Shown piece after piece: positions 1,005 through 53,907 of a stretch of DNA of 64,000 bases (the first letter of the stretch is position 1; the number at the start of each line of letters is the position of its first letter). The notes under the pieces were generated by a model. The model had not been told where the DNA came from. It saw nothing but the letters and a program-made list of their open reading frames with translations, and made no database searches. Source of the DNA: Macrostomum lignano (taxonomy: Eukaryota); NCBI GenBank assembly GCA_002269645.1, contig NIVC01000106.1, positions 310,001 to 374,000 on the forward strand, read 5' to 3'. Both the position numbers and the translations under genes were made by a program.

Positions 1005-1021
1005 CTGTCGAGGTTTGCGTG

Positions 1022-1460
1022 GGTCAGCTGGGTCAGCTAGTGGGTCACTAGTGTCAGCTGGGTCAGCTAGTGGGTCACTAGTGTCAGCTGGGTCAGCTAG
1101 TGGGTCACTAGTGTCAGCTGGGTCAGCTAGTGGGTCATTGATATGTTTCAGCTGGGTCAGCTAGTGGGTCATTGTCATTGATATGCATCAGATAGGTCAG
1201 CTGGTGGTTCATTGATGTGTCAGCTAAGTCAGCTAGTGGGTCATTGATGTGTCAGCTAGTGGTTCATTGATGTGTCAGCTAGTGGTTCATTGATGTGTCA
1301 GCTAGTGGTTCATTGATGTGTCAGCTAGTAGGTCATTGATGTGTCAGCTAGTGGGTCATTGATGTGTCAGCTAGTGGGTCATTGATGTGTCAGCTAGTGG
1401 GTCATTGATGTGTCAGCTTGGGTCATTGATATGCATCAGATGGGTCAGCTGGTGGGTCAG
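1022..1460. repeat. Intronic minisatellite of 23-30-bp units built on GTCAGCT(A/G)G
   Basis: Tandem GTCAGCTGGGTCAGCTAGTGGGTCACTAGT and GTCAGCTAGTGGTTCATTGATGT units. Confidence 0.85.
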
Positions 1461-1529
1461 CAAAGTTAACCATAAATAATGTCAGCACAATGAGTCAACA
1501 CTAAAACGAGTCCAACATCCCGGACTCAC

Positions 1530-2294
1530 CAGAGTCCTCAGCATCTGCGGCCGGATACCATAAGCTGGAGCCAGATCTCCCGGTTTCGGAGGCTGCTCAG
1601 GCTGCTGACCCTTAGCGGGTGCCGAGTACTTTCCAGACAGAAGTCCATCAGCCAGCTTAGCCAACTGAATATCCAGACTCGATACGGGATCGGACCTTTC
1701 CCTCTCCAATATGCCTGATCTACCATCGTAGTACCTTCGCACAAATGATGGCACAGCGAACAGCAGCTGCAGCACCGAGTTGATGTAGCAGGAGTTACCC
1801 AGATTGCGCAGACCGGTGAGACCCGGCCCACCAGCAGGCACCAGGGCTTTGCCAGTCTCCTGAATCGAATCCCACTCGCGCATGTTGGCTTCAATCTCCA
1901 ACTCATTCATAGTTTTATCAACTTTTCTCATAGCATTTAAATCGATACCAAAATGCTTGAGATGCTGCTCAAGCTTACTATCCAGCACCATATTATCCTC
2001 GGCATAAGAGTACACATCGGCGCCTTGAGCACAGATGGTGCCCAGTTTAACAGCCAGAGGATAGCCAGTCCTCTCATAGTGCTCAACAGCGTGGTTGTTG
2101 CCGCCGGAGCCGTCAAAGTAGCGCCGGCCGCACAGGATGGTGCCATCAGTCAGGTTTAGCCAGAGATTGTCGCGCTTATCACACTTGGCGCACTGCCAAC
2201 CGCTGGGCGGGATTTTAATCCCATTGTCCAGCTGGACTAGGCTGGAAGCGTGCTTGGACTCTTGGCGAGTCTCGCCCTCCCACGTGTTGCTGGC
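1530..2294 (-). CDS. USP5: USP5/USP13 exon 2: ZnF-UBP domain and Cys box
   Basis: [23 protein letters not shown]...NNHAVEHY zinc finger; GLTGLRNLGNSCYINSVLQ Cys box; TTCCAG acceptor at 2295, GTGAGT donor at 1529; 765 nt, phase 0. Confidence 0.92.
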
Positions 2295-2473
2295 CTGGAA
2301 GGGTAAAGTACATATTAACAACTTACTTTGTAGCTCAATATGCAACCTTGTACTTCTGGTCTGCTGAATATCCTTCTGAATTCTAAATTCAAAACTCAAA
2401 ACTCGAAACAGCGGTCGAACTTTACATATTGCCGCAATACAAAGTGGGCTATCTAGGGAATATTAAGATCTAT

Positions 2474-2735
2474 GGTTGTAGCCTAGTGGTTAGAGCATCA
2501 GACTCACGACTAAAAGGTCGGGGGTTCGATTCTCAATCAATCCACTCGGAAAAATTTGTGACTTTATTAAAGCCAGACACTTAACTCTCTGAATTGTTTC
2601 AGTTCACCCAGCTGTAAAATGGGTGCCAGCATTAGCTGGGGTAATTGAGGGTGCGCTTAGCGACCCACGACTTCTGGGATTGAACAGCCAGCGAGCGCCA
2701 GCAAGAAAAAAATGCCCACTTAAAAATTACAATTA
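2474..2735 (+). mobile_element. tRNA-derived SINE with a CORE-like domain in USP5 intron 1
   Basis: A box TAGCCTAGTGG, B box GGTTCGATTC (2523-2532), then TGTGAC...CACTTAACTCTCTG...CAGTT...CTGTAAAATGGG resembling the MIR CORE consensus; TTACAATTACA tail; no clear TSD. Confidence 0.6.
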
Positions 2736-2938
2736 CAGACGTCTAACTAATTAGATGACGAGACAATTAGCCCTAATAATACAGTTATAGTTACTCCTGC
2801 CGTTTACCTAAAATTACGGTAATTTTTGCTGTTTTCTTCATAAGGTACGCCACAGTTTTGGTGTAATCAGTTATTATTATTGTGTTTGTAAAAGTACAGT
2901 ATGCTCTTTCCACTCTTTCCAGAATAAACAATTCTCAC

Positions 2939-3418
2939 CTGAGCCAAAAGCTCCAAAGTGTGAGCCGATTGAGCAGCCAAAACTCCATCAATGCTTAATC
3001 TAATCCGTTCCGGCAAACAGTCATTTGGCAACGGCATAGCAACAGCTTCCGGCATCAGGTACAAAGAGTTGGATTCTTCAAACGAATACTGCGACTCATT
3101 GCCAGCAAAGCCATCGGCTGTGCCAATAGCCAATCTAGTTGGTTTCTTAGCTGGCGGATCTTCAACAACATTCGCTGGCACCTCTTTCCATCGACGAATG
3201 CGGCGATACTGCAGGTATAGTCTATGGCCGAACCTGGAGTAATACAACGGCAAGAAGTCTAGACCGACGCCGTGAAACGATTTCAAACAGATAAATAAGC
3301 CGTTAGGGCTCTCGGGATTGTCGCACGAATAGAGGCATTCGTCTTTGTAGACCCGACTGTGCTCAGTTGGAATTGAGCAGTGGCTATCCGCTAGGCTTGC
3401 TAGGAGTTGAGCGTCCAT
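2939..3418 (-). CDS. USP5: USP5/USP13 exon 1 (160 codons)
   Basis: MDAQ...RVYKDECLYSCDNPESPNGLFICL...KKPTRLAIG matches the USP5 N-terminus; CAG|GTGAGA donor at 2939/2938. Confidence 0.88.
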
Positions 3419-3586
3419 GGGCTTAGGTTGAAGTTTTTAGTAAGCTCAGTTGCTTTGCGTTGGCTTAATATAGTAGTAAAATAAGCTGAAAGATAAAGTG
3501 ATTAAGTTTAAGTTGGTTTTAATTAAGGACATTTCCAATGATGAATAAACATTTCCGAGTTCCGACTAGGAACTGGAAAATGCTTT

Positions 3587-4140
3587 TTAGAGATGGAAAC
3601 GGACATTTCCACAATGGAAACAGACATTTCCGCAATGGAAAGCGGACATTTCCACAATGGAAAACGGACATTTCCACAATGGAAAACGGACATTTCCACA
3701 ATGGAAACAGACATTTCCACAATGGAAACGGACATTTCCACAATGGAAAGCGGACATTTCCACAATGGAAACGGACATTTCCGCAATGGAAAGCGGACAT
3801 TTCCACAATGGAAACAGACATTTTCACAATGGAAAGCGGACATTTTCACAATGGAAAGCGGACATTTCCACAATGGAAACGGACATTTCCGCAATGGAAA
3901 CGGACATTTCCACAATGGAAGCGAGCATTTCCGCAATTGAAACGGACATTTCCACAATGGAAGCGAGCATTTCCGCAATTGAAACGGACATTTCCACAAT
4001 GGAAACGGACATTTCCACAATGGAAGCGAGCATTTCCGCAATTGAAACGGACATTTCCACAATGGAAGCGAGCATTTCCGCAATGGAAACGGACATTTCC
4101 ACAATGGAAGCGAGCATTTCCGCAATTGAAACAGACATTA
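3587..4140. repeat. 21-bp tandem repeat (AATGGAAACGGACATTTCCAC)n, about 26 copies, upstream of USP5
   Basis: Unit read directly; produces the METDIST/WKRTFPQ ORFs in all frames. Confidence 0.92.
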
Positions 4141-4789
4141 CTGCAGTCGAAATTTTCAAAACTAAAACGAAATTTTGAATTTCGGAATCCAGCTCCACTA
4201 ACAACTGATTATGGCAATTATTTATCCTAATTAATTAACTACACCAAAGCTTCATCACTCAGGATAAAAAAGACGTTTAACAAAACAAACCTTTGCTAGA
4301 ACAGAAAATAAAAAGCTATTTATCAAGCTCTTTAAATTCACTATTGCACTATTTACTTAAGCTTTATATAGTTTAAAACAGTATAACTGTTGTGAACTTA
4401 GATGTAAGAAAATAAGTCAAAAAGTGCAAAAAACTATTAAATAGAGAAGCTTGATAAAATAATATTATGACTAAGTATATAGAGGCACAGAAAACATTAC
4501 TTGTTCAAAATGAAATAGTGATAAAAATCAGAAAAATTCGGGCAATGTTTGCAGTGTACTATTGAAAATCAATGCTAGTTAGGCAAGAAGACTGCAATAT
4601 ACTGCAGTAAACGCTTAATATAACAGATAATAGAAATATAAAATATAAAGATTGTCTTTGAAATACTTATTGTATAAAATCGCATATATAAAGAAAACCT
4701 TACTAATTTCAGAAACTATATATATATAAAAGACTGACGTACAGTTAAGATTACGTAAATTGGGTGATGTCACGTGTCTTCTGTACGGG

Positions 4790-5630
4790 CAAGCCGGTAA
4801 GAGTGGGGGGATGGTGGGTCTGGCGTGTACACTGAGGGGCAGGCGGGTAGAAGTGAGGTGGTGGGTCCTAAGTGTACATTAAGGGCATGCAGGCAGGCCG
4901 GTAGGAGTGGGGTGGTGGATCTTGCGTGTACACTAAGGGGCAGGCGGGTAGAAGTGAGGTGGTGGGTCCTAAGTGTACATTAAGGGCATGCAGGCAGGCC
5001 GGTAGGAGTGGGGTGGTGGATCTTGCGTGTACACTAAGGGGCAGGCGGGTAGAAGTGAGGTGGTGGGTCCTAAGTGTACATTAAGGGCATGCAGGCAGGC
5101 CGGTAGGAGTGGGGTGGTGGATCTTGCGTGTACACTAAGGGGCAGGCGGGTAGAAGTGAGGTGGTGGGTCCTAAGTGTACATTAAGGGCATGCAGGCAGG
5201 CCGGTAGGAGTGGGGTGGTGGATCTTGCGTGTACACTAAGGGGCAGGCGGGTAGAAGTGAGGTGGTGGGTCCTAAGTGTACATTAAGGGCATGCAGGCAG
5301 GCCGGTAGGAGTGGGGTGGTGGATCTTGCGTGTACACTAAGGGGCAGGCGGGTAGAAGTGAGGTGGTGGGTCCTAAGTGTACATTAAGGGCATGCAGGCA
5401 GGCCGGTAGGAGTGGGGTGGTGGATCTTGCGTGTACACTAAGGGGCAGGCGGGTAGAAGTGAGGTGGTGGGTCCTAAGTGTACATTAAGGGCATGCAGGC
5501 AGGCCGGTAGGAGTGGGGTGGTGGATCTTGCGTGTACACTAAGGGGCAGGCGGGTAGAAGTGAGGTGGTGGGTCCTAAGTGTACATTAAGGGCATGCAGG
5601 CAGGCCGGTAGGAGTGGGTGGTGGGTCTTA
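4790..5630. repeat. 101-bp G-rich tandem repeat, about 8 copies, each unit made of two related halves
   Basis: CTTGCGTGT recurs at 4921, 5022 and 5123. Confidence 0.92.
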
Positions 5631-5942
5631 AGTGTACAAATTAAGAGGCAGGCGGCTGTTTTGTAATAATAAACTGGCAACCTCAAGATCACTCGGTTCA
5701 GATAGATAACACGACACAGACGGTGAAAAAGCAGGTAGAAGTAAATCAACTAGAATAAGCATTGACTAGAAGATTTTTGATTGATTATATCAGGTTCCGA
5801 AAAGCAATCGATAAAAAAATCGATCGACTTATTTATTAATCAACCCTGATGCTGATCGGCCTGCAGCTCGGCAACAGACTTCTCCGACTTTTTCATTTTG
5901 GCCATATCGATACCAAAATGCTTGAGATGCTGCTCAAGCTTA

Positions 5943-6913
5943 TGATGTGTTCCTTATTACCAGTCCTCAACTGTAATCAAGGAACAATCACTTCTAGCTC
6001 TGTAGCTAGGCAACCCAGTAATCAAATGAAGGTATTCAATTACCTTTGAGTCCTTAAATGAGAGCTCTCGTAATAATCCTCGTCCGTAGTATCGCGATCA
6101 GTAACTTTCCTGTCCTTCAGGAAGTTTAGGCGCCTGGTAACAGTTGATCTGGTCCGTTATCTCCTTTGTCCTCTTGACTTCTTGCCGGCCGGTATCTGTA
6201 GTTCGGACCAATCGGAAGCTTCCAAATTAACAATGGGGATCCCTGCGCCAAACTGCGGTTTAATATAAGCCTACTCCTTCTAGTAGTGCCTCTATGCACT
6301 CTAGGTATGGCTCCGGAAACCACTGATAGTCTTCTAAGATCTATCAGGGGCAGTCCTTCTGGAGACTGCAACCAGTGGAGTCTAAACAGACTCAAGAGTC
6401 TCAGCAGACTCAAATAAACTCAAGTCTCAATAGACTTGAGCGAGACGTCTCAACCAACGGGCGCAAATGAGTAAGGCTTACCGCAAGAACTCGTCCACGA
6501 CGCGAGTTTCTTCAGGAAGGCTTCACTAGAGCTTCCTCTTCGGAGCTTCTCTCTCTTGGAGATTTTCTGGCTCCGGGTCCGTTCCGGACCACTTGTATTT
6601 ATAGGCGTTCAGACCTCTCTCGAGGTCGTACATCACTGTCTTCGCAAATGTCAAAGGGTCACGATTCGGTGGCTGTCAAGCATGACAGGGTAGAAAGTTG
6701 CGCAACTAGTCTACTGTAAAAGCGCATGATTGGTTACCGTAGCTGGTAGACTTTGATTGGTTCATCCGGGTGCAACCCGAGTGCAAACCAAATGATGACT
6801 TGAAGGTGGGGTTTGAGTTTGAGTTTAGTAGTATTTAGTTTACTACTAAATAAAATGTGTGAGTAGTACATTAACACTTTTATGTCTTCTTACGGGAGGT
6901 AGAACACTCTACA
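5943..6913 (-). repeat. 3' LTR (971 bp)
   Basis: Minus strand TGTAGAG...CACATCA; TATAAAT box near 6596-6602; no difference from 15472-16442 seen by eye. Confidence 0.95.
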
Positions 6914-7455: not shown

Positions 7456-10400
7456 TTAACGAGGTCGCAGATTGTAGCCATGTTGCTGGTTCTCGGTTGA
7501 TGTTTGTGTCTCCTCGTGTTTTGTTGCGATGTGGCGGTTCGCCGAACGCGTGCGATCAGCGTTGTCTAGTGACGGTAAAAACGTTGTCGTGTCAGTGTTG
7601 ATCTTCTTTAGTCGATGAATGTGCACGTAGAATTGGTGCTGATGAGGATCTTGCACATTGGCCAGGCGTGCCGTTGTCGGTGACGTTAGTTGGACCACTC
7701 GATATGGTCCTTTGTACTTCTGTGCGTGTTTGTGCGTCTGTTGCGGCGGATAGTGCAGGTAGACGATGTCGCCGGCTGTCAGAGTTGTCGATCTCGTGTC
7801 GGTGCCGGTGGTTAGAGCCACCTGATTGTCGATGTTGTGCTTGGCTACTTTCCATGCGAGGTGTAGTTGCGTGACGAACTTTTGAATGGACGTCGGGACT
7901 TCCACATATTGCGATGGTAGTAGTTGCTGTGCCAATAGGTTTGGCGGCTGGAAGTCTCGCCCAAACATTAGAAAGAATGGCGTATTGTCCGTTGATCGAT
8001 GAATAGCGCTGTTGTAGGCCATTGTTACTGCTTGCAGGTAGATGATCCAGTCTTCCGGCTGTTGATGCGCGAAGTGTGTAATCATCTCGTGCAGGTTGCG
8101 GTGAAACCGTTCAACCATGTTCGCCTTCGGATTGTAGGTCGATGTGTAGATCTGCGTAATGTTGAGAATCTTCACAACTTGCTGAAACAGTTGAGACGTA
8201 AACTGCGATCCGTTGTCTGACGTAAGATTCTTCGGCGTGCCGTACTTGCAGATGATGTCGTTGAAAAAGCTCATTGCCACCGTCTGAGCTGTGATGTCCG
8301 GTATCGGTATGGCGATAGCAAACTTCGAGAAGATATCCAAGGCGGTTAGGATGTAGGTGTAGGCTATGCCCTGGAGACAGCTCGGTGGTAGCGGTCCGGT
8401 GATGTCGATGCTTAGACAGTCCATTGTAGTCGACTTCGGAATGGACTGTAGCTGCGGTTTCTGTCGTCGTCCTGTCTTTGATGCAGCACATGAATGGCAG
8501 TTGTTGCAATACTGCTTGATGTCGCCGTACATAGTTGGCCAAAAGTAGTATTGTCCCACTCTCGCGATGGTCTTTGCGGCCGACAGGTGTCCAGCGAGTG
8601 GGTTGTCGTGCAGCTCGTTGAGAATTGCTTGCCGAAACGAATATGGTATGTAGATTTTAGGTTTGTTGTCACTCATCCAGTAGAGTCGTGACTTGTTGAT
8701 TGTTAAATGTTGTCGCTGCTTGCGCAGGAATTTTCGTTCCACGGGGCTGAGCTTGATGTCCTTGTCGTTGTTTTTAACTGCTATGTAGAAGTTGTCGTGT
8801 TCCGTCTCATCCACCAATTCCTTGATGTTAGGGATTGGATGAATGGCGTTGACTTCGTAGGCTCTTGACAGGGCGTCCGCGGCCTTGTTAGTAATTCCTG
8901 GTTTGTAGACGAGCTTGTAGTTGTAGTCCTGGATCTTGAGTGTCATCCTGATGAGTCGGTTGTTTGTTTGTCCTTTTGTAGTTACGACGTAGGTCAGCGG
9001 TGCGTGATCTGTGCGTACTATCGTCTGTAATGGAGATCCATAGATGTAGTAGTGAAACTGTCGTAGGGCGAACAGAACTCCTAGTAGTTCTCGTTCCGTA
9101 GCTGACCATTTTGTCTCATTCGGTTTAAGTGCTCGACTGACGTAGGCTATAGGTCGTTCCTTTTTGTCTTCAGTTTCCTGTAGTAGGACTGCTCCGAGTC
9201 CCGTTCCTGAGGCGTCTGTCTCGATGATGAAGGGTTTGTCGAAGTCCGGATGCTGTAGCAGTGCGTCTGATGTCAGCTGTCGTTTGATTTCGTCAAAACT
9301 TTCTTGTTGCTTTTGTGTCCAATTCTCCTGCTTCCATTTGTCGAACTTGAGCAGGTCGTACAGCGGCTTTGCTGTCTTCGCGAAGTTGGGTAAGAACTTT
9401 CGGAAGTATTGCGCAAGTCCAAGAAATGATTGGACCTTCGTTTTGCTAGTTGGCGTAGGAAACTTTTTCACTTTATCCACGTTGTCTGGGTCCGGTGAAA
9501 TTCCTTTGGCTGTCACCTGATGTCCCAGGTAACGCACGTTGTCTCGGAAGAATTTGCATTTAGTTGGTTGTAGCTTCAGACCTTGACGTTGTATAAGCGC
9601 GAGGGCCTTCTCCGTCGCTTCATAGAGTCGTTCGAAGTCTTCTCCGTAGGCCAAGATGTCGTCAACATAGTGCAACAGGTTCGTGCATCCTGCAAGCATG
9701 TATGCTGTTAGTCGGCTCATCGTTGCTGGGCTGTTGCTGAGTCCCATCGGCGATCGATTGTACTCGTATACTTGTCCATTGTAGGTTTTGAAAGCCGTGT
9801 ACTGTCGTGACTCTTTCTCGATTTCAATTTGCCAAAATCCATGACGTAGATCGAACACTGTGAACAATTTTGCCGTGTTGAGCTTTGCTAGTAGTTCGGA
9901 GATCTTCGGTAGGCTTTGCTGATCCGTCGGTATGTACTTGTTCAGTAGTCTGAAGTCACATACGAGTCGTCTTTCGTTAGTCTCCTTCTTTTGCACCAAG
10001 AGACATGGTGATGAGTATGCTGAAATGGCTTTGCTGATGATGCCGTGTTTCAGCATTTTGTCGATAATCTCATCGAAGTGCTGTTGCAGATGCTTGGCGA
10101 TCGGGTACGGTTTGCACTGAATTGGTTCCGTGTGCGGCAGAAGTTTGATTTCCTGTTTGATGTCCTTGGCTCGTCCGATGTCGTAGTCATGGTGGCAGAA
10201 AGCGTCGTTGTACTTCCACAACAGCTGTCGAACTTTCCTCTTTTGCTGTTCCGTAATCGGGCTGTCATCCAAATTGATCTTCTTTTGAAATTCTTCCTCT
10301 GTTAGTCGTGGAGTCGCTTGCTCAATCAGCATAACCGATGCTTGGGTGTTGAGATGACCGATGCACATTCCTTGTCGTAGATGAACCGTTTCTGTGTTCG

Positions 10401-13400
10401 GGTTGAATATTTGTACTGGCAGCTGTTTATCTTTTGCAACCAGTACTAGTGCCGTAGGCATCATAATTTGGTGTTTAGCCGTGACTCTTCTGTTTGGGTC
10501 GAATATCATTGCTTCCTCCGTTGCGTTAGTTGCCTTTGCCTTTATCCAGCAGGCGCTCTCCGGTTGGATGATGACATCTTGTTGCAATGTTACTTTTGGT
10601 AGTACTCGGATCTGGTTGATCAATGGTTGTTCTACCGAGTCGATCTTGAACGTTTGCTTATTGAAGTCGAAGGTCAATGGTAGTCGAAGCTGCTTGAACG
10701 TGTCGATGCCAACAATAACGTCCTGGTTTGGGAGTCTGTCGATGACGTACGTTGGAACTGTCAAGTGTTTATTAGCGATTCTTAAATCAATGTCGGCTTT
10801 TCCCAGAATGTTTAGCGAATGTCCTCCTGCTCCTGCAACTGCGATTGTTGCTGGCCGTAGAGCAAGTCGTAGCTTGTTGCACAGTTGTTTTGATATAACT
10901 GTGATGGAGCTGCCGGAATCGAGTAGCGCTCGACATGGTAGATTGTTGATTACCACTTGAGCCATGGCTTTGCCAATTTCGGCGTGTAGAGTACATACGT
11001 AGTTCTCTGGCCATTTTGGGTCTTGCTGTTCTGCTTGATAGTTGGGTGGTTGTATTCTTGGTGCCGTTGGTGTTGTCGGAATCGATGGATATAGCCGCGT
11101 TGCTAGTGTCGGTTGCCCTTGAACCTCACGATGTGCAGTTTCTGTTAGTTCTAAACTGTTGTCGCCTTCCGTTGTCGTTCTTTGCATTATGGCATTCACT
11201 GTCTTCTTAGCTCTTGGACAAGTTTGACTGAAGCACCGTACGATCGACGAAATGATGAAGATTGCCGTGACAATCCACACAATGCAAGCACCGTAGAAGA
11301 TGAATCCTTGATAGAGACTGCCTCTTCCATTGAGCAGCTCCCAGAAGCTGTTTGTCCAAAATGATTTGATGGCGCTGTCCATTGAAACAAGGACGGGAAA
11401 TCTTCCTGTCCCGGTTCCTTTGTCCTTTCTTGTGAACAGCTGGTGAATCATCTTGCGTTGGGTGATGAACGCTTGCAAGAAGTCGTTGATCGTCCATCCT
11501 GGTGTTATCTCGTCAAGTTGGATATCGGCGAATGGCGTATACTTCGTTCTGTTGAATCGGATTTTCAAATCCTCCATGTCGTAGTTTTCGTCGACGATTA
11601 CTTCCGGTTCTGTGATGTTTGCTGTCGTTCCAGTTGTTTTGATGACGTGTAGTGCATTGTCCAGTTGATAGTAGTTTGCTGCCGTGGTGCAAGGTCTCGG
11701 TATTGCGGTGCCAACGATGATGTTGTGTACCGTGTCCAAGAATCCTTGAATTCGTTTTCCTTCGTAGAACGCTTCAATCCTTGGCTTGTCGTAGCAGGTT
11801 GTTGACGTGTTCGACGGCAAGATGTTAAAGTGCTGTATCGGCGTGCACTTGTATATCAACAGATGCTCGTATATTGGAACTGCCAAAACGTTCGTCATTC
11901 CGGTGATTTTACGAAAAGTCATCGTAGGGTTGACATAGTAGTTTTGTCTGGCATAATTTAAGTTGATTGCGTGCATTTTGCAAGTTAGCTGGACCAGTGT
12001 TCGATGCAAGTGGTTTAACTGGTTGTGTAGATTGTGATCCAAAGCCGTTATCTTTGCTGACAGTAGTCGGTTTGACACCAGTTTGGGACGTTCGATGTCA
12101 CGTCGTCGTCTGTTCTGTTGTTCCTGCTGTTGATACGTTCCGTTGATGATCGCCAGAAAGGTTTGTTTGTCGTCATCTTTTACGTAGACTGGTATCTCTT
12201 GTTCCGAGATGAATAGTGTCTTGTCTGTATCCTTGCATTTCAGTTTTTGCTCGACTGGTTTCTTTTGAAACGTCAGTGCCAAGTCTCCTGACTTTGCCAA
12301 AAACGTGTTTGACAGTAGGCCTCCTTCCACTGTGTGGTACTTTTGTAGTTGACAGTCGATTTCCGTCTCAACCTTCCAAGCGAAGAAATATTGTCGTGAC
12401 TTTGATGGCTCTTCGTAGTGTGGATCGGCTCTGTGCACTATCTGCCATCGATAGTCTGGATGATACGTTGGACTCAGCGGTAGGCTGTAGAGTTCTGCAT
12501 TTCGCAATATCGGCGTTGGGCACCATCCTTCGCTGTATCGGCATTCACTTAGTTGCAGTTGCAGTGATTCCATTTTCTCGTACGGATTGTAGTAGAACGG
12601 AACATTCCTGATTAGGTAGCTGTTGCGTGCCGTGTAGTCAGGCCATCTTTCATTATAGTGGACATATCGACCGTTTGCCACATTCTTTGTTCGGAAGAGT
12701 TGTGCGTTGCCGACCTTTTCATCAGGTTCTAGTACACCATCTTTGGAGAACAATGTCTGGTTCCATCGTAGGCAGTCAGCGTGCGACACATGTAGCTCAT
12801 GCTGTCGGAATCGGATTCTGTTCCATTGTCCTCGCCATATTTTTTCGACTAGGTGCTTGTCTCTGAAGCACACGATTCCAAGTTGTCGATGCTTCTTGAT
12901 GTTGGCTTTGTAGAGATCGATTGTGATCTTTTTTGGCTTCGCCTGGTTTGTCTTGAAGTAGCTGCATTTGATGTCGGTTGGTATCTTGTAGATCATCGGT
13001 TGGATATGCGCATCCGTTGGACATATCATTGGTTTCTCCATTGCTGTTGCTTTGGTGACTACTGCCGTCAGTAGTATTATGATGATCCAGAATATCCAGA
13101 ATCGCCATTTTCTGAACGTTGCCGTTGTCTTTGCTGGCATTGGCTGCGGCTGCCATTCGTTATCTTCTACGTCCGCATCGTATTCTTCCTCTTGTTCCAT
13201 TGGCGTTTCCGAGCGCAAGGCATCCGATTCGTTCCGCTGCTTGTCGTCTTCATCATTTTCTTCCTTGCTTTCTTCCGATGTTGTAGTTGTGTCACTCCAT
13301 TGTCTGCGGTACCTCACTTCGGCCTTGTAGTCGACCGTTTGGATGTAGGCTTCACCATTTCGTTTATAGCGGATCTCGTAGCATTGATCGCTGTCGGAGC

Positions 13401-14775
13401 TTAGATTTCTTTCTTCCATTCCTTTGTGCCTTCCGTCTTCATGTTCTTTGTCGGCGGCTCGGTTGTCATCAGCATCATTGTGCATCTCATAATCGTGATC
13501 GCTGCTTTCTTCTTGCTGTTCTTCTTCCATCTCCGCATTTCCGTCGTTGCTTCTTTCGTTGTCATCCTTCGTTGCCAGTTCTTTGTCGTTGCTTTTGTTT
13601 GTTTCTTCTTTTCTTTCACTGATGTCGCTTGACAATGTTTTTTCTGTGCTCACTTCTGTCTTTTCTTCTTCGCTGTCAATGTTAGTTTCTTTCATTTCGA
13701 CCATGCTGATGTTTTTTGTCTTTTCGCTGCTCTCCACATCGAGCCAGTCGATTTCATTGATAGTGAAGTCCATTTCTAAGTCGTCTATCGTGAAGACTTG
13801 CTGCTCTTGCTGTTCGCTTTCCGGTGTGTACGTGATGGCGTTTGCATATCGTTGCATCGCTTGCGTTGGTTGCTTGGGCATGTATCTGGTGTTTCGCGGT
13901 CTGTAGCCATTGTTTCCGAAGCGTTTCGTGTTTTGCTGCTGCCAATTTTGATGTTGTTGCCATGGTTTTTGCGGCTTCCTTCTGTTGAATGGCTGTCGCT
14001 GCATGTCATTTCTTGTTGACCGATGAGGACAATGTATTTGGTAGTGTCCTTCTCGTCCACAGTAATAGCATCTGGCTTGGGCTCGTTCATTTCGTCTTTT
14101 TTGTTCGGCGATAACGGCTGTTTGATGTTGCATCAATTTGTTTAGTTGCTGTGTCAGTTTCTGCACTTCTGTGTTGCCGGTTGTCATTAGTGGAGCGCTT
14201 GCTTCCCACTGCATTCCGCACCGTAAAAGGTCTTCCTCGGTTTCAATGTTTTCGCGTAGAAGTCTATCTCGGAGTGACGGCTGTGCATTGTTTATTACGT
14301 GCAGAATCAGATTTTGTTCGCGATCCATCAATCGCTGTCGCTCTCTAGCGGCTAATTCTGCCGCACCCAGAGGTGGTTGGTCTGCAGCTGGCAGTGTTGG
14401 CTGATGCAGTGCCTTAATTATCTGACGGATGTCGTCCACAAAGGTCAGGAAGGATTCGGTTGGCTGCATCCTTCTGTTATGCAACTTGTGCAGTAGCACT
14501 GATCTGTTTGTGCCACAGCGGTTGAAGTGTGCGCGCAGTTGAATGATTAATGCTGGGTAGTTTTGCTGTGTTGCCGCGTCTAGTTTACCATAAATCTCTC
14601 GTGCAGTGCCTTGGAGGAGTGGTGGCAACAGTTGCGCTTTTTCTGGATTTTGTAGGTTGTATTCCCTACATACCAGGTCAAAATGATCAACAAAGGTGTT
14701 AAAGTCTTTTTCCATAGAAAAGGTGCCAACTGTCTCTTTGATATCTCTGTGCACCGTTGGATTGCGCCGCGCCAT
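7456..14775 (-). CDS. 2439-aa Gag-Env-Pol polyprotein
   Basis: CCHC knuckle CYYCGREGHYQIHC (14029-14070); internal signal peptide (13042-13107); furin site RRRR (12100-12111); TM (about 11238-11310); protease LLDSGS (10912-10920); RT YVDD (9658-9669); RNase H TDASG...ADALSR; integrase HHCC, DITG/DNGSQF/ERFH and GPY motif. Confidence 0.96.
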   Translation of the reverse strand: MARRNPTVHRDIKETVGTFSMEKDFNTFVDHFDLVCREYNLQNPEKAQLLPPLLQGTAREIYGKLDAATQQNYPALIIQLRAHFNRCGTNRSVLLHKLHNRRMQPTESFLTFVDDIRQIIKALHQPTLPAADQPPLGAAELAARERQRLMDREQNLILHVINNAQPSLRDRLLRENIETEEDLLRCGMQWEASAPLMTTGNTEVQKLTQQLNKLMQHQTAVIAEQKRRNERAQARCYYCGREGHYQIHCPHRSTRNDMQRQPFNRRKPQKPWQQHQNWQQQNTKRFGNNGYRPRNTRYMPKQPTQAMQRYANAITYTPESEQQEQQVFTIDDLEMDFTINEIDWLDVESSEKTKNISMVEMKETNIDSEEEKTEVSTEKTLSSDISERKEETNKSNDKELATKDDNERSNDGNAEMEEEQQEESSDHDYEMHNDADDNRAADKEHEDGRHKGMEERNLSSDSDQCYEIRYKRNGEAYIQTVDYKAEVRYRRQWSDTTTTSEESKEENDEDDKQRNESDALRSETPMEQEEEYDADVEDNEWQPQPMPAKTTATFRKWRFWIFWIIIILLTAVVTKATAMEKPMICPTDAHIQPMIYKIPTDIKCSYFKTNQAKPKKITIDLYKANIKKHRQLGIVCFRDKHLVEKIWRGQWNRIRFRQHELHVSHADCLRWNQTLFSKDGVLEPDEKVGNAQLFRTKNVANGRYVHYNERWPDYTARNSYLIRNVPFYYNPYEKMESLQLQLSECRYSEGWCPTPILRNAELYSLPLSPTYHPDYRWQIVHRADPHYEEPSKSRQYFFAWKVETEIDCQLQKYHTVEGGLLSNTFLAKSGDLALTFQKKPVEQKLKCKDTDKTLFISEQEIPVYVKDDDKQTFLAIINGTYQQQEQQNRRRRDIERPKLVSNRLLSAKITALDHNLHNQLNHLHRTLVQLTCKMHAINLNYARQNYYVNPTMTFRKITGMTNVLAVPIYEHLLIYKCTPIQHFNILPSNTSTTCYDKPRIEAFYEGKRIQGFLDTVHNIIVGTAIPRPCTTAANYYQLDNALHVIKTTGTTANITEPEVIVDENYDMEDLKIRFNRTKYTPFADIQLDEITPGWTINDFLQAFITQRKMIHQLFTRKDKGTGTGRFPVLVSMDSAIKSFWTNSFWELLNGRGSLYQGFIFYGACIVWIVTAIFIISSIVRCFSQTCPRAKKTVNAIMQRTTTEGDNSLELTETAHREVQGQPTLATRLYPSIPTTPTAPRIQPPNYQAEQQDPKWPENYVCTLHAEIGKAMAQVVINNLPCRALLDSGSSITVISKQLCNKLRLALRPATIAVAGAGGHSLNILGKADIDLRIANKHLTVPTYVIDRLPNQDVIVGIDTFKQLRLPLTFDFNKQTFKIDSVEQPLINQIRVLPKVTLQQDVIIQPESACWIKAKATNATEEAMIFDPNRRVTAKHQIMMPTALVLVAKDKQLPVQIFNPNTETVHLRQGMCIGHLNTQASVMLIEQATPRLTEEEFQKKINLDDSPITEQQKRKVRQLLWKYNDAFCHHDYDIGRAKDIKQEIKLLPHTEPIQCKPYPIAKHLQQHFDEIIDKMLKHGIISKAISAYSSPCLLVQKKETNERRLVCDFRLLNKYIPTDQQSLPKISELLAKLNTAKLFTVFDLRHGFWQIEIEKESRQYTAFKTYNGQVYEYNRSPMGLSNSPATMSRLTAYMLAGCTNLLHYVDDILAYGEDFERLYEATEKALALIQRQGLKLQPTKCKFFRDNVRYLGHQVTAKGISPDPDNVDKVKKFPTPTSKTKVQSFLGLAQYFRKFLPNFAKTAKPLYDLLKFDKWKQENWTQKQQESFDEIKRQLTSDALLQHPDFDKPFIIETDASGTGLGAVLLQETEDKKERPIAYVSRALKPNETKWSATERELLGVLFALRQFHYYIYGSPLQTIVRTDHAPLTYVVTTKGQTNNRLIRMTLKIQDYNYKLVYKPGITNKAADALSRAYEVNAIHPIPNIKELVDETEHDNFYIAVKNNDKDIKLSPVERKFLRKQRQHLTINKSRLYWMSDNKPKIYIPYSFRQAILNELHDNPLAGHLSAAKTIARVGQYYFWPTMYGDIKQYCNNCHSCAASKTGRRQKPQLQSIPKSTTMDCLSIDITGPLPPSCLQGIAYTYILTALDIFSKFAIAIPIPDITAQTVAMSFFNDIICKYGTPKNLTSDNGSQFTSQLFQQVVKILNITQIYTSTYNPKANMVERFHRNLHEMITHFAHQQPEDWIIYLQAVTMAYNSAIHRSTDNTPFFLMFGRDFQPPNLLAQQLLPSQYVEVPTSIQKFVTQLHLAWKVAKHNIDNQVALTTGTDTRSTTLTAGDIVYLHYPPQQTHKHAQKYKGPYRVVQLTSPTTARLANVQDPHQHQFYVHIHRLKKINTDTTTFLPSLDNADRTRSANRHIATKHEETQTSTENQQHGYNLRPR
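11230..13110 (-). other. Envelope glycoprotein domain, herpes gB/chuvirus G-like class III fusogen, inside the polyprotein
   Basis: TCKMHAINL...VNP...LLIYKCTP...TCYDKP...QGFL...PRPC follows the gB WCELQN...LNP...VSTCVP...CYSRP...GQL...EPC pattern; sequons NQT, NGT, NTS, NIT, NRT; signal peptide, furin site and TM. Confidence 0.75.
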
Positions 14776-15451
14776 GTTGTTGATGGGATAGAACGGTAGC
14801 TCTAGGTCTGGGTCGATTTGTAATGGATCTTCCAGTGTGGTGTTTCTTTCGAAATAAACTTCGGTTGTAACTGATTGTCTCGCGGCGCTTTTGACACCTC
14901 AATTTGTTATGTCTGACCTTGAACGGAATTCGGCTTTTGGCTGCTTTTTCTGACCTCTTATTCGCTGGCTGATTTTCGCACTTATGCGGCGTCCCGCAAA
15001 GTGTATCTTTAAAGTGCTTGAAGTGCAGCTGCTTCTTGCTTTTTTCAAAGGCCTTTCTTGTCTTCGTGACGTGCCTTGTCACGTTTTATCAAATTTCGGT
15101 TTGTTTTAGCTTTCGTCAAGTGTTTTTAATTTCGGTTTTGTTTTAGTGTGTATTGATTATTTTTCGGTTTGTTTTCAGTGTACCGGACGTTGTTTTCGGT
15201 TTTGTTTAAGGTTTACTCTTGCTCGAGCTCGTTAAAAACAAAAATTTAACACGCGTGCTCAAACGTTACTCAAAATTGACAGGTACTCAAGCCTGTATAC
15301 CAAAACTTTTACTCGAGTTTCAAATCGTACAAAAATCGAAAAGTGTCGAAAAGTGTTACCTCTAACACGTGCGCGCAAAATTAATGAAGTCGCTCTTTCG
15401 TCACTTTACAATAGCTTGGCCAGGCTATTGCTCAAAAGTTTGAGTAGTGCC

Positions 15452-15469
15452 GAGAGGGCGAGATCACCA
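15452..15469 (-). promoter_or_regulatory. Primer-binding site (TGGTGATCTCGCCCTCTC); primer tRNA not identified
   Basis: TGG starts 2 nt after the 5' LTR end. Confidence 0.6.
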
Positions 15470-15471
15470 AT

Positions 15472-16442
15472 TGATGTGTTCCTTATTACCAGTCCTCAAC
15501 TGTAATCAAGGAACAATCACTTCTAGCTCTGTAGCTAGGCAACCCAGTAATCAAATGAAGGTATTCAATTACCTTTGAGTCCTTAAATGAGAGCTCTCGT
15601 AATAATCCTCGTCCGTAGTATCGCGATCAGTAACTTTCCTGTCCTTCAGGAAGTTTAGGCGCCTGGTAACAGTTGATCTGGTCCGTTATCTCCTTTGTCC
15701 TCTTGACTTCTTGCCGGCCGGTATCTGTAGTTCGGACCAATCGGAAGCTTCCAAATTAACAATGGGGATCCCTGCGCCAAACTGCGGTTTAATATAAGCC
15801 TACTCCTTCTAGTAGTGCCTCTATGCACTCTAGGTATGGCTCCGGAAACCACTGATAGTCTTCTAAGATCTATCAGGGGCAGTCCTTCTGGAGACTGCAA
15901 CCAGTGGAGTCTAAACAGACTCAAGAGTCTCAGCAGACTCAAATAAACTCAAGTCTCAATAGACTTGAGCGAGACGTCTCAACCAACGGGCGCAAATGAG
16001 TAAGGCTTACCGCAAGAACTCGTCCACGACGCGAGTTTCTTCAGGAAGGCTTCACTAGAGCTTCCTCTTCGGAGCTTCTCTCTCTTGGAGATTTTCTGGC
16101 TCCGGGTCCGTTCCGGACCACTTGTATTTATAGGCGTTCAGACCTCTCTCGAGGTCGTACATCACTGTCTTCGCAAATGTCAAAGGGTCACGATTCGGTG
16201 GCTGTCAAGCATGACAGGGTAGAAAGTTGCGCAACTAGTCTACTGTAAAAGCGCATGATTGGTTACCGTAGCTGGTAGACTTTGATTGGTTCATCCGGGT
16301 GCAACCCGAGTGCAAACCAAATGATGACTTGAAGGTGGGGTTTGAGTTTGAGTTTAGTAGTATTTAGTTTACTACTAAATAAAATGTGTGAGTAGTACAT
16401 TAACACTTTTATGTCTTCTTACGGGAGGTAGAACACTCTACA
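15472..16442 (-). repeat. 5' LTR (971 bp)
   Basis: Same sequence as 5943-6913; the identical 95-aa ORFs at 6126 and 15655 show the same 9529 offset. Confidence 0.95.
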
Positions 16443-16934
16443 CTTACTATCCAGCACCATATTATCCTCGGCATAAGAGTACACATCGGCGCCTTGAGCA
16501 CAGATGGTGCCCAGTTTAACAGCCAGAGGATAGCCAGTCTTCTCATAGTGCTCAACAGCGTGGTTGTTGCCGCCGGAGCCGTCAAAGTAGCGCCGGCCGC
16601 ACAGGATGGTGCCGTCAGTCAGGTTTAGCCAGAGATTGTCGCGCTTATCACACTTGGCGCACTGCCAACCGCTGGGCGGGATTTTTATCCCATTGTCCAG
16701 CTGGACAAGGCTGGAAGCGTGCTTGGACTCTTGGCGATCAGACATGTTTTCCAGTATAGAATAAAGCAGCTAAGCTGAAAAACAATAAAGAAATAATAGA
16801 TTAATTTTTTCATAAGATTTGATTTGCATATTTAATGGGCCTTTAATTGCCTCTGAGGGCCTGTCGAACCCCTCCCTGACGCTTTATCGGGTAGTGTCTC
16901 TACACCCTCCCCGATTCTACAGGTGACTGCTCTA

Positions 16935-17945
16935 TCCCCTCCCTGATGCTTCAGCTGGCACTGTCTGTATCCCCTCCCTGATGCTTCAGCTGGCACTGTC
17001 TCTACCCCCTCCCCGATGCTTCAGCTGGCACTGTCTCTACCCCCTCCCTGATGCTTCAGCTGGCACTGTCTCTACCCCCTCCCTGATGCTTCAGCTGGCA
17101 CTGTCTCTACCCCCTCTCTGATGCTTCAGCTGGCACTGTCTCTACGCCCTCCCTGATGCTTCAGCTGGCACTGTCTCTACGCCCTCCCTGGTGCTTCAGC
17201 TGGCACTGTCTCTATCCCCTCCCTGATGCTTCAGCTGGCACTGTCTCTACGCCCTCCCTGATGCTTCAGCTGGCACTGTCTCTACGCCCTCCCTGATGCT
17301 TCAGCTGGCACTGTCTCTACGCCCTCCCTGATGCTTCAGCTGGCACTGTCTCTATCCCCTCCCTGATGCTTCAGCTGGCACTGTCTCTACGCCCTCCCTG
17401 ATGCTTCAGCTGGCACTGTCTCTACGCCCTCCCTGATGCTTCAGCTGGCACTGTCTCTATCCCCTCCCTGATGCTTCAGCTGGCACTGTCTCTACGCCCT
17501 CCCTGATGCTTCAGCTGGCACTGTCTCTACGCCCTCCCTGGTGCTTCAGCTGGCACTGTCTCTATCCCCTCCCTGATGCTTCAGCTGGCACTGTCTCTAC
17601 GCCCTCCCTGATGCTTCAGCTGGCACTGTCTCTACGCCCTCCCTGATGCTTCAGCTGGCACTGTCTCTACGCCCTCCCTGATGCTTCAGCTGGCACTGTC
17701 TCTATCCCCTCCCTGATGCTTCAGCTGGCACTGTCTCTACGCCCTCCCTGATGCTTCAGCTGGCACTGTCTCTACGCCCTCCCTGATGCTTCAGCTGGCA
17801 CTGTCTCTATCCCCTCCCTGATGCTTCAGCTGGCACTGTCTCTACGCCCTCCCTGATGCTTCAGCTGGCACTGTCTCTACGCCCTCCCTGATGCTTCAGC
17901 TGGCACTGTCTCTATCCCCTCCCTGATGCTTCAGCTGGCACTGTT
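16935..17945. repeat. 35-bp minisatellite (GATGCTTCAGCTGGCACTGTCTCTACGCCCTCCCT)n, about 29 copies
   Basis: 35-bp period measured (17225 to 17260); no spacers. Confidence 0.93.
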
Positions 17946-18339
17946 TTTACCATTGAATTGAGTAAAAGCAAACATTGTTGGTATAAAAATGAAAAGGAAA
18001 ACACTGAAAAAGCTACATCAAATAAGTTGTAATTCTGAATACTCATTCTAGCATTTATTTTTTCGTTCATTTCAGTCTAAAACGAGCAAGCAACTAAATT
18101 CAGGTCCAAGACTGACAGAACATATAACAGGTTTGAAATCGCATTAAAATGATTGAAAAAATGCATGTTTGCCATAAAGACAGCATATCAATACGGCTAC
18201 GATAACGTTTTCTACTATAAAATATAAAATATTACACTAGTAAGCAACCAGACACCAATCTCTTTCAACAGCGACCCAATAAACTCTAATACCATTAATT
18301 GACTTTTTGATCTTATTAACTGACATGTAAATCTTAATC

Positions 18340-18810
18340 TCATTAACTAATCTCTCAATCTCACCTGTACGGTCCATCTCTAATTCTTACCTATAGAATC
18401 CATCTATCAATCTCACCTGCACAATCATTCTAACAATCTCACCAGTACAATCAATCTCTCAATCTCACCTGTACAATCAATCTATTAATCTCACCTGTAC
18501 AATCAATCTATCAATCTACCCTGTAAAATCAATTAATCTCACCTGTACAATCAGCTTATCAATCTCACCTACTACAATCAATCTATCAATCTCCCCTGTA
18601 AAACCCAAAAATCTCACCTGTACAATCAACTTTAAATCTTACCTGTATAATCAATCTCTCAATCTCACCTACTAAAATCAATCTCTCAATCTCACCTGTA
18701 CAGTCAATCTCTCAATTTCACCTGTGAAATCAATTTATCAATCTCACCTGTACAATCAATCTATCAATCTCACCTGTACAATTAATCTATCAATCTCACC
18801 TGTAAAGTCT
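18340..18810. repeat. Degenerate ~26-bp repeat (AATCTCACCTGTACAATCAATCTATC)n
   Basis: Recurrent ATCTCACCTGTA core. Confidence 0.8.
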
Positions 18811-18903
18811 AACTCTCAAAATCGCTCTCATTGAATTGAACTATTCTAAAAACCCTGTCAAAAAAGAGAGTACATGAAGTACCTACATACACTGGTAGCT
18901 TTA

Positions 18904-19351
18904 TTAAACACTTAAATCGATTTTTCTCAACCATTTACACAGCAGCAATCGGGCAGGCGACACCAGCGCAGCCTCGGGCCTGTGCAAGCTTCTCAAACTC
19001 AGCCAGACATAATTGGTCCGATCAATCTGCCACAGCAGAGATCGATAGCCAATCAGCGGCAGGAAGCACAGGCGGGCATCAGCTGATAGACAGCCAGTAG
19101 CTGCTGCTTTTTCCAGATCGGCACTCAGGCACTGGTGATGCGCCTCGGCAGATCCGACAATCTCCTTGATCAGATTGGCCAAGCTGTTGCCATGCTCATT
19201 CGGCTGCTCGGCGGTGGCTTTTGCGGCCGAGTGTAAGTTCTCCGGCGAGGCAATGCCGTGCCGTCGGAGTTCGGCTTCGGGTAGTTCGCAGCGACCACGG
19301 TTGATCATTATGTTGGCTGAGGCTGACAGGAAGCGGAGGAGACCGACCAGC
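18904..19351 (-). CDS. Terminal exon of an NDUFAF6-like (squalene/phytoene synthase fold) gene
   Basis: G-LVGLLR...[15 protein letters not shown]...[15 protein letters not shown]...[21 protein letters not shown]...KWLRK parallels the NDUFAF6 C-terminal half; TCCAG acceptor at 19352; upstream exons not found. Confidence 0.55.
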
Positions 19352-19429
19352 CTGGATGAAGGAGTTGTGGGGCGGCGACAGAATGCAGGCAAAGACAGAC
19401 ACAGAAAAAAAACACAAAGACAGACAGCC

Positions 19430-19485
19430 ACAGACAGATAGATAGACAGACAGACAGAGAGACACAGACAGACAGACAGACAGAC

Positions 19486-19517
<32 letters not shown>

Positions 19518-19578
19518 GCAGACAGACAGACAGACAGACAGACAGACACACAGACACAGACAGACAGACAGATACAGA
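19430..19578. repeat. (GACA)n microsatellite
   Basis: Read directly. Confidence 0.95.
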
Positions 19579-20498
19579 CAAACATAACGAGCGTAGAATG
19601 CTGGTAGAGTCGCTCGCTTGGCGAGAAGAATAAATAGAAAGCTTAATATCAACATCTGAATATGATTGCAATTTCTAACAACTTCAACGCGTTTCGCACG
19701 CCATGGTGCATCGTCAGGATTTTATTAGACCGACCCGAGAAATTGAGATTGAAAGCGATTGATTTCGTTCTGAAACAGACAGGATTATCAATCGCTTTCA
19801 ATCTCAACCTCTCAAATCGGTCTAATAAAATCCTGATTTTAGGATAAAATCCTAAAAATTACCTTAGGTGTCTACTGTACTAGTATATTTTGAAAAAGGT
19901 ACTGGTCTAACATAGCATATCTAAAATTTGTAGATATATATGTTTGCATCCACAGGTTTATCTAAAAGCTCCTTGTATATATCTGCACATTTTTGAAAAG
20001 CATAATCACAATACATAACTTTTCTACTTGATTTTGTCTTAAAATTCAGACTATTAATGGTCAATAGAATATACACAATTCTTACAAGCATGCTTTTAAA
20101 AAGATTAGTTTCAAACAAACAGATACTTAATATTTATATATACTAAAAGCTATCAAAAGTAATTAACTAGGCCTCTCATAGCCTTAGCATATCTAGTAGA
20201 GTCTATACAAGTACCATAATTGACTTGATACTCAAAAGTTGAGTAATCAACATTATTTTTTAATTTAAACTTGAGGAATCTCATACAATGTTGCTTTATA
20301 CTAGAGTAGTTGAGTTGAGTCAAGTAGTTGATAAGATTTGAAATAGCTTATTTGATTATAACTTTTAAATGTAAACACTACTATATTCTAAGAAAAAGTA
20401 ATTAAAAATTCTTATTATGCTTGAAACAAAATGTTTTATTTATCAATATATTTTCACTATAGAAATCAGGTAAAGTGGCTTGCTTGATGAAGAGTAGA

Positions 20499-20652
20499 TA
20501 AATAAAGGTAAATATCAACATGAAGTACCATTTGAGTTGCCGATGCATTTCGTCCATTTGCATTACGAAAACGATGACGATGTCCTAATGCAAATGGACG
20601 AAATGCATCGGCAAATCAAACAACACTTCATGTTGATATTTACCTTTATTTA
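20499..20652. mobile_element. 154-bp palindromic MITE-like element, possibly TA-flanked
   Basis: TAAATAAAGGTAAATATCAACATGAAGT pairs with ACTTCATGTTGATATTTACCTTTATTTA; inner 28-bp arms also pair. Confidence 0.6.
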
Positions 20653-21704
20653 TTTTCACTATAATATAAGGGGTCTTTAATATACTTGATACAAAATCAT
20701 CATATATTGAGGTTGCTCAGTTGCAACTATTTTGAAAATGATGGTACAAAATATATTATTATGTAGAAAGCTTAATCTTATCTGCATTTGTAAATGTTTA
20801 ATTTCTATGTATATTTAAAAGTTGATGTAGGGGGCCTTGCTTTATAGGTTAAGACACAAAAAAGGAATTATGATTAGCTTTATGATAGTTAATTTGGTAA
20901 TATCTGTGTTGATAACAGGTTACTTTAGAAGTTCAGTGCTAAATGTATATAGACTCAGAGAACATTCAATGCCAATTATTTTAAAGTTTTTGTTTTTTAA
21001 AGGTAATTAAAACATATATGAAATTAGGAATTCTGTTTGTTTCGCCCTTAAACCATTTTGGCCATGGACGTTTCACCCCTAGAAACTTTTGGCCCATAGT
21101 CTGTTTTGCCCATAAACCAGTGTGGCTATAGTACATATTTTAACCAAAATGGTGATTATGTAATTAAGAGATATAGCCATATATATATGTATTTAATTTT
21201 GTCTTTTTACTATGCTAATTTTTAGTTTTAATGTGTAACAAAATATGAATTGTTGCTATAACATGAGTTATTATAATTGTGAATTATTACAATTTTTATT
21301 CTAAGAAAATCTCCTTTAAAAGTGTGATAAGCCTCTTTAATTAGAGGATGAGAAAGGGTTATGGTAAAACCAGAAACACTAAAAGAATAGATCTGTCAAC
21401 CTTTTCCAAGTTAGGCATTCTTTGCCACCTTGGCCAAACTGGTTCAATTGGCTTAGAGTAAAAATGATCAATAGTCAAAATAGTCTATGGGCAAAATTGT
21501 CTATAGGCAAAATGGTCTGGGGGCAAAATATCAATGGCTAAAATAGTTTATAGGTGAAATAACTAGCTAACAATTTGGACTACCTACCAAATTGAAGAGG
21601 ACAACACAAATATTTTATTGCATGTATATTATATAAAATTATAATTTGAATTCTAATTACAAATATATACATCAATTAGGCTACATATGCACACATAGAT
21701 GGAC

Positions 21705-21788
21705 GGACAGACAGACAGACAGACAGGCAGACAGACAGACAGGCAGACACACAGATAGACAGACACACAGATAGACAGACACACAGAC

Positions 21789-53905: not shown

Positions 53906-53907
53906 CA

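Follow-up and report, generated by a model that had tools for sequence, protein, structure and literature searches.

The locus described here, located in a 64,000-nucleotide window of Macrostomum lignano DNA (the whole stretch that was analysed), raises the question of how a retroelement that encodes its envelope protein between Gag and Pol, in the same reading frame, makes, separates and packages its proteins. An earlier note on this DNA had described one uninterrupted ORF of 2439 aa. This was confirmed: the frame has no internal stop and runs on the minus strand, an orientation that the note had omitted, between window positions 7456 and 14775, where the plus strand is riddled with stops. 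Features characteristic of Ty3/gypsy elements were present, namely two LTRs with TG...CA ends, a target site duplication (TSD), a primer binding site (PBS), and protease (PR), reverse transcriptase (RT), RNase H (RH) and integrase (IN) in that order with gypsy-type domains (Table 1).

Table 1. Features of the Gag-Env-Pol element and its target site, in window coordinates.
Feature	Window position	Residues (aa)	Strand	Remarks
5' LTR	15472..16442		-	971 bp, TG...CA ends; TATAAA at LTR position 311
PBS	15458..15469		-	12-mer, 2 nt inside the 5' LTR end
5' leader	14776..15471		-	696 nt, ATG-free
Whole ORF	7456..14775		-	Gag-Env-PR-RT-RH-IN, 2439 aa
Gag, capsid-like	14011..14775	1-255	-	single CCHC knuckle, aa 236-249
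Linker	13141..14010	256-545	-	basic, then acidic; length varies; weakly constrained
Internal signal segment (predicted)	13042..13140	546-578	-	hydrophobic core behind a basic flank; small residues precede the conserved Env start
gB-like class III ectodomain	11320..13041	579-1152	-
Furin-type site RRRR	12100..12111	889-892	-	R-X-K/R-R retained in both family A and family B
TM helix (predicted)	11230..11319	1153-1182	-	hydropathy
Env-to-protease tail	10990..11229	1183-1262	-	in frame
Aspartic protease	10690..10959	1273-1362	-	Pfam
RT core	9514..9993	1595-1754	-	Pfam
RNase H	8923..9321	1819-1951	-	Pfam
Integrase zinc finger and core	8128..8649	2043-2216	-	Pfam
3' LTR	5943..6913		-	no difference from the 5' LTR
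TSD CTTA, left copy	5939..5942		n/a
TSD CTTA, right copy	16443..16446		n/a
Empty copy of the targeted host repeat	1941..2268 (about)			single CTTA; 37 nt matched to the left flank, 295 nt to the right

The earlier note had spoken of activity in the case of intact LTRs, and the 971-bp pair was indeed identical throughout (971/971) and flanked by a 4-bp TSD, which was confirmed because the empty target repeat in the same window has one CTTA. Identical LTRs indicated a recent insertion, to be read with the caution that assembly can homogenise repeats. The surrounding window is rich in repeats. The suggestion that the element may be active appears reasonable as far as transposition is concerned, given the identical LTRs and numerous near-identical copies. 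The PBS 12-mer recurred in 12 of 16 fetched loci, among them family B (see below), and a pattern search for the corresponding primer tRNA gave no match. No additional ORF of more than 70 codons was found in the leader or the 3' region. We conclude that this Ty3/gypsy element is autonomous, has transposed recently and belongs with those of GAG-ENV-POL order and gB-type Env.

All four enzymatic domains were placed by Pfam behind the TM helix in Ty3/gypsy order, as had been proposed, and named relatives of Pol included 17.6/297-like and gypsy proteins. For Gag, Pfam returned DUF1759 alone (E 0.004), PDB matches were confined to the knuckle, and the single-sequence model (pLDDT 49) was too poor for a fold search; its ESM Atlas neighbours at 0.91-0.94 included Ty3_capsid, Retrotrans_gag, PNMA and zf-CCHC clusters. 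The protein has no Gly at position 2 and hence no myristoyl anchor. The acidic linker of about 270 aa that had been reported behind the knuckle is present, but the stretch from knuckle to signal measures about 295 aa and is acidic in aa 326-545 only (72 D/E vs. 27 K/R), aa 256-325 being basic. The acidic part showed dN/dS values of 0.37-0.43.

The ectodomain contains 12 Cys and five N-glycosylation sequons besides the RRRR motif, in agreement with its prior description as Cys-rich, probably glycosylated and furin-cleavable. Searched alone as a single sequence in Pfam, it matched PF24664 with an E-value of 1.8e-5 and 23.4 bits, under the 27-bit cut-off. HMMER yielded 53 Env relatives among 1.84 billion proteins, and a full-length homologue search of the Env region gave two. 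The Env profile was built from an alignment of 40 members, comprising 34 of the 53 HMMER relatives and six copies from this genome; 26 of the members matched PF24664 and three matched herpes gB. Against the PDB, all 49 sequences matched by this profile were gB (best E 1.2e-16). The AlphaFold monomer model of the ectodomain was of moderate quality (pLDDT 72, pTM 0.47); its top Foldseek match in the PDB was herpes gB (E 4e-21, TM ~0.48), and VIA-align superposed 422 residues on gB with a Z of 12.6 and an rmsd of 6.9. Among predicted viral structures, a Nyavirus glycoprotein came first (E 5e-24). The gB-like core that had been suspected from the letters thus came out positive in both the profile and the structural comparison. 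Two loops at strand tips (approximately aa 647-652 and 704-711) carry aromatic residues that are retained in family B, and in view of their place in the modelled class III fold they may represent the fusion loops. Compared with three family A copies, Env had dN/dS ratios of 0.12, 0.09 and 0.06, near those of Pol and far under those of the acidic linker; judged by these ratios, Env is under purifying selection. In one Env relative (P0044), a BEL/Pao protein, env follows pol, so that this type of Env is not confined to the GAG-ENV-POL layout.

The fusion of Env into the polyprotein was found to be a trait of the family rather than of this copy, with other copies showing the same order. In the genome-wide env search, 76 of 257 candidates were scored and 80 matches listed, at least 11 of which, including that of the window, sit in open frames of 2461-2538 aa. 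Among the matches listed, env preceded RT by 1091-1164 nt in every one of 52 env-RT pairs; 36 of these were in frame and 16 out of frame, the latter being counted against the single-polyprotein model. Thirteen loci were fetched, mostly picked for their long frames, and in 10 of them the knuckle, both hydrophobic segments, PR and RT occurred in one frame. The window copy represents a shorter-linker subfamily (2439 vs. 2498 aa). Family B, with an Env 64% identical and saturated synonymous sites, still forms one frame of 2480 aa, and the single-ORF families C (P0005, 2852 aa) and D (L035, a 2458-aa open frame) have the layout of the window element. By these sequences, no fewer than four divergent families with a single ORF (A-D) are present in the genome. 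Named proteins with 97-99% identity belong to Macrostomum lignano, in which family C is annotated too, and a UniRef record (P0003) independently links the Env tail to Pol with 97% identity. In three of 15 candidate loci, Env was in frame with Pol (L034), part of the single frame of family D (L035), or in unchanged position within a frameshifted copy (L036). No sister without env or with a separate env was present among the 52 env-RT pairs and these three loci, a sample found partly via env. A nested insertion or a misassembly that happened to fall in frame could be suspected in a repeat-rich window, with small frameshifts in 16 of the 52 env-RT pairs, but such an artefact is ruled out by the long-frame copies (at least 11 of the 80 listed), the four families, record P0003 and the nematode proteins of the same layout, and its probability is negligible.

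Those nematode proteins, from Globodera and Panagrolaimus, and further proteins share the order of the window element, while Env is only about 22-29% identical to the nematode-type relatives. Among the relatives are eukaryotic gene models in which exons may have been joined, as is clearly the case for P0002. Of 133 eligible rows, 68 entered the RT-RNase H tree: 22 in which Env precedes RT, 16 with names and 30 drawn at random. P0013, which was below the coverage limit, was omitted, as were P0002 and P0056. The tree was made by a quick method with SH-aLRT support only, from database relatives without Ty3, Cer1 or gypsy references. The flatworm rows formed one clade (96, starred), sister to the nematode-type rows (94, unstarred), with the nematode rows at 98 (starred). 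The layout requires five changes on this tree, at least two of them forced by starred branches, in agreement with the reported non-monophyly of GAG-ENV-POL elements (PMC13524379).

The novelty implied by the earlier note did not hold, since the GAG-ENV-POL order with a gB-type env has already been published for nematodes, bryozoans and flatworms (PMC13524379). According to the text of that study, elements from Nematoda, Bryozoa and Platyhelminthes have gB-type Env only, arranged GAG-ENV-POL (Chary and Hayashi, eLife 2026, PMC13524379), and the finding of env between gag and pol in a nematode Metavirus is credited there to Sacco et al. 2022 (J Gen Virol 103:1739). Its table has nine flatworm rows, including one from Macrostomum (Platyhelminthes_Rhabditophora_Mlig_errantivirus_2, 16 copies), and gives RT clade S for the flatworm rows and R for the nematode rows examined (PMC13524379). 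The terms 'polyprotein', 'frameshift', 'splic', 'single ORF' and 'fused' are absent from its main text, which leaves the single frame and its topology undiscussed; its figures or sequence repository may state the single frame. The literature search, with most subscription journals outside its scope, returned no other relevant paper. The gene order and the kind of element are therefore known and add little as a discovery; what remains is the mechanism.

A signal segment and a TM helix had been predicted near aa 557-578 and 1156-1180, and hydrophobic stretches were indeed located at aa 554-581 and 1153-1186. The integrase contains a third stretch, of marginal hydrophobicity (peak 1.51). The topology was derived from hydropathy and charge, not from SignalP or DeepTMHMM. 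Just before Env, a hydrophobic core (KD13 above 2) was found in 22 of 26 Gag-Env proteins, the search anchor probably having been placed too early in the other four, and on top of the core the N-side was more positive in 18 of the 26. A flavivirus-like topology, with Gag cytosolic, Env luminal and Pol cytosolic, would fit the sequence of the element and its relatives. Signal cleavage probably occurs after aa 578: in family A the segment ends in A-T-A, with small residues at -3 and -1, Ala/Ser runs precede the Env start in many relatives, and the core is short, at about 13-15 residues. These same features argue against an uncleaved anchor, in which case Env would span the membrane twice and Gag-Env-Pol would stay one chain until the element's protease acted. 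Such an arrangement seems improbable to us, even though the end of the segment is variable, family B has a Pro near the expected cut, and some gB-type Env ectodomains are described as flanked by two transmembrane domains (PMC13524379).

The absence of a frameshift that had been claimed was also borne out, by one frame and by the lack of a shared XXXYYYZ slippery heptamer across four aligned copies. Indels across 20 loci were mostly scattered, and four of the 20 share a one-base frameshift near Env-tail codon 1204. This was considered as a regulated gag-env/pol form and rejected, as it comes without a slippery site and without a restart Met and in differing sequence backgrounds; we attribute it to breakage or to a sequencing error that recurred. 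The proposed 1:1:1 ratio of Gag, Env and Pol could apply at most to translation, since the single-ORF element Tf1 reaches a Gag:IN ratio of 26:1, apparently by Pol degradation (PMC7175516); equal translation need not give equal amounts in particles.

One frame could still give rise to several proteins, if a cis- or trans-spliced or internally started RNA produced Env or Env-Pol and a shorter RNA extra Gag. The window's subfamily has a Met at aa 546, where the signal starts, as in a textbook N-terminal signal peptide of family A; retroelements generally need much more Gag than Pol, and spliced-leader trans-splicing occurs in flatworms. However, the 30 residues upstream of the core lack a Met in family B and in 19 of the 26 Gag-Env proteins (the other seven have one), the linker from Gag to the signal is open in families of very different length, and between families A and B there was no island of synonymous-site conservation that would mark a shared splice signal. 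Subgenomic RNAs, the main rival reading, are an unlikely source of Env. In contigs from four sequencing runs, no intron-like joint inside the ORF was found among 15 of 21 joints, and single X1 contigs run through the junction of linker, signal and Env (12994-14114) and through the TM region (11024-12107); none of the listed runs is recorded as RNA, their RNA status was guessed and contigs drop rare forms, so that they constitute no evidence either way on splicing.

We favour, with a probability of roughly 60%, a polyprotein route that combines an internal signal, a split by signal peptidase, Pol carried on the Env tail, budding and fusion. The genomic RNA would be translated from the first ATG into one polyprotein, and the signal (aa 546-578) would enter the ER membrane such that its N-side faces the cytosol, leaving Gag cytosolic yet membrane-anchored without myristoylation. 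A signal peptidase cut near aa 578 would separate Gag from Env-Pol; the ectodomain would be glycosylated, trimerised and cleaved by furin at aa 892, and the TM helix would stop transfer, leaving PR-RT-RH-IN on the cytosolic Env tail. As Gag and Pol would no longer be one chain, Pol would have to ride on Env and be packaged through it rather than as Gag-Pol. Gag and Env-Pol could then co-assemble on one membrane and bud, after which the element's protease would release capsid, nucleocapsid and enzymes. Candidate protease sites, all of them pattern guesses, follow the nucleocapsid, precede PR and RT and separate RNase H from IN; these are kept in family B. Further candidates in the linker and the Env tail are absent from family B. 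Surplus Gag could arise only post-translationally or from some RNA form outside those seen. Finally, Env would fuse the particle with a neighbouring cell, probably of the germ line or a stem cell. We suggest only tentatively, with the odds somewhat against it, that this assembly route, in which signal peptidase splits Gag from Pol, the Env signal anchors Gag and the Env tail delivers the enzymes, is undescribed for LTR retroelements.

The last steps might also not take place, if the element moved within the cell only and Env were kept as a membrane scaffold, for Pol delivery or for cell-cell fusion, with no infectious particle leaving. No particles are on record; moreover, the published survey gives the transmission route as unknown outside Drosophila and notes that herpes gB needs partner proteins (PMC13524379). 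Against this speaks purifying selection, under which the ectodomain is retained in full, together with the furin site and the aromatic residues of the two predicted fusion-loop tips, as does the consistent presence of env in the 52 env-RT pairs and three loci (partly env-derived, as stated above), and we regard movement restricted to the cell as rather unlikely.

If the polyprotein route is true, it would depart from the rule by which Pol enters particles fused to Gag, tie transposition to membrane budding, and imply a class III fusogen that works without herpesvirus partner proteins; with Pol delivered by the Env tail, even ordinary retrotransposition would depend on the envelope and on budding. 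The spread of gB-type envelope retroelements is described as unexplained outside Drosophila (PMC13524379). Families B, C and D are missing from the nine flatworm rows of the published table (PMC13524379), and with at least four single-ORF families in one flatworm genome, the route, if true, could be watched in a laboratory animal. The value left thus lies in the processing model with Pol on Env, as we infer it, and in the three more families in the same genome.

Among known elements, the closest in the published table is Mlig_errantivirus_2, with which the window element shares the host species, the gB-type Env, the GAG-ENV-POL order, an identical PBS 12-mer and multiple copies (PMC13524379). 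Its LTR offset of 9727 nt lies inside the range of family A (9529, 9747 and 9890 nt), and Mlig_errantivirus_2 is probably family A, an assignment made from the PBS, which family B shares, and the LTR offset rather than from alignment (PMC13524379). Of the features of gB-type GAG-ENV-POL errantiviruses, the following were found here: an Env with the HSV gB fold, the gene order, an intact element between LTRs and multiple copies.

As in the nematode endogenous retroviruses (ERVs) of Sacco et al. 2022, Env precedes pro-pol (PMC13524379). Unlike them, the window element has a flatworm host, its own RT clade (96, starred) and an Env of the low identity given above. The nematode elements reportedly have a continuous gag-env-pro-pol ORF with a nyamivirus-like Env, and are also said to carry extra ORFs, unlike the window element with its bare leader and 3' region. 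Both the Nyavirus glycoprotein as top viral fold match and the sister position of the Globodera and Panagrolaimus proteins of this layout (SH-aLRT 94) are consistent with the ORF and Env reported for them.

The errantiviruses gypsy and ZAM have a frameshifted gag-pol and a spliced env. Like the window element they combine a Ty3/gypsy Pol with an envelope gene, and their infection from somatic to germ-line cells in Drosophila provides a model for the fusion step (PMC13524379); unlike it, they have an F-type Env in a separate ORF after pol (PMC13524379), an arrangement not found here. The modelled ectodomain fold resembles herpesvirus gB and nyami-/chuvirus G, which are class III fusogens, but identity is 10-15%, the context is a retroelement polyprotein and no gH/gL partner is encoded. 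Tf1 of fission yeast is likewise a single-ORF Ty3/gypsy element with no frameshift (PMC7175516). It differs in having no envelope and in that its Pol is released from Gag only by the viral protease. In flaviviruses, the signal of the protein that follows anchors the capsid, an analogy of logic for which no homology is claimed, and in foamy viruses, again by analogy only, budding of Gag needs the Env leader peptide and Pol is not made as Gag-Pol.

Beyond the family of the studied Ty3/gypsy element (family A), three more single-ORF Gag-Env-Pol families were linked to the same genome. Family B, represented by loci L021 and L022, was the closest, with an RT 82% identical to that of the window element, followed by family C (proteins P0005, P0056, and P0057; about 43%) and family D (locus L035; about 39%). 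In the RT-RNase H tree, in which P0056 was not among the 68 rows, one clade united families A, B, C, and D (starred SH-aLRT support, 96*). The Env ectodomain of family C was interrupted by a long Thr/Ser/Pro-rich insert, and family D carried three CCHC knuckles.

Around codon 1204, within the Env tail, four of 20 loci (L005, L006, L007, and L012) had in common a frameshift of a single base, and their Gag-Env frame stops a short way beyond the TM helix. This shared frameshift had no slippery site. In the family A copies L023, L024, and L025, dS relative to the window copy was uneven along the ORF, ranging from about 0.03 to above 0.9, and this patchiness points to recombination between subfamilies. 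The LTRs of these three copies (78–90% identity) were more divergent than Pol. The spacer between PR and RT (aa 1371–1540), which may resemble a degenerate dUTPase-like fold, showed a dN/dS of 0.05–0.07.

Both sides of the element (window 1–5700 and 16800–22100) were rich in tandem arrays, with units of 21–26, 35, and 101 nt in addition to short-period repeats. Further features are listed in the table below, including an ORF with DUF1759, a domain known from BEL/Pao Gag. Judging from its sequence, the region 44988–64000 is probably a Maverick/Polinton-like element, with 1489-nt terminal inverted repeats that extend beyond the window end; several more of its ORFs were without any Pfam match.

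Features of the window with their positions
Feature	Window position	Strand	Description
PR-RT spacer	10156–10665	(−)	170 aa; no Pfam match
Mutator-like DNA transposon	24481–30023		Long inverted repeats (98–99%); FLYWCH and MULE transposase ORFs
Ankyrin-repeat ORF	35404–36888	(−)	Made of a 216-nt tandem unit
DUF1759 ORF	38272–39201	(−)	Pfam
Palindrome	46471–50391		Near-perfect, about 3.9 kb; inside 44988–64000
PC4-domain ORF	50660–51424		Pfam; inside 44988–64000
Integrase with chromodomain	51592–52659		Pfam; inside 44988–64000

A Gag-Env protein of the window element's type (P0018) was recorded in the databases on a 9-kb contig under a bacterial MAG (Kangiellaceae); the contig is probably of animal origin and was binned with a metagenome. 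Five other database proteins (P0069, P0073, P0075, P0077, and P0083) were Env-before-Pol polyproteins of 2774–4057 aa that formed their own RT clade in the RT-RNase H tree, with strong matches to PF24664, the Pfam family matched by most of the aligned Env ectodomains of this gB-like type. Extra domains occurred in three of them: P0069 has a ubiquitin-like domain as well as ankyrin repeats that lie between Env and PR, and P0073 and P0075 have an Ig domain C-terminal to the integrase.
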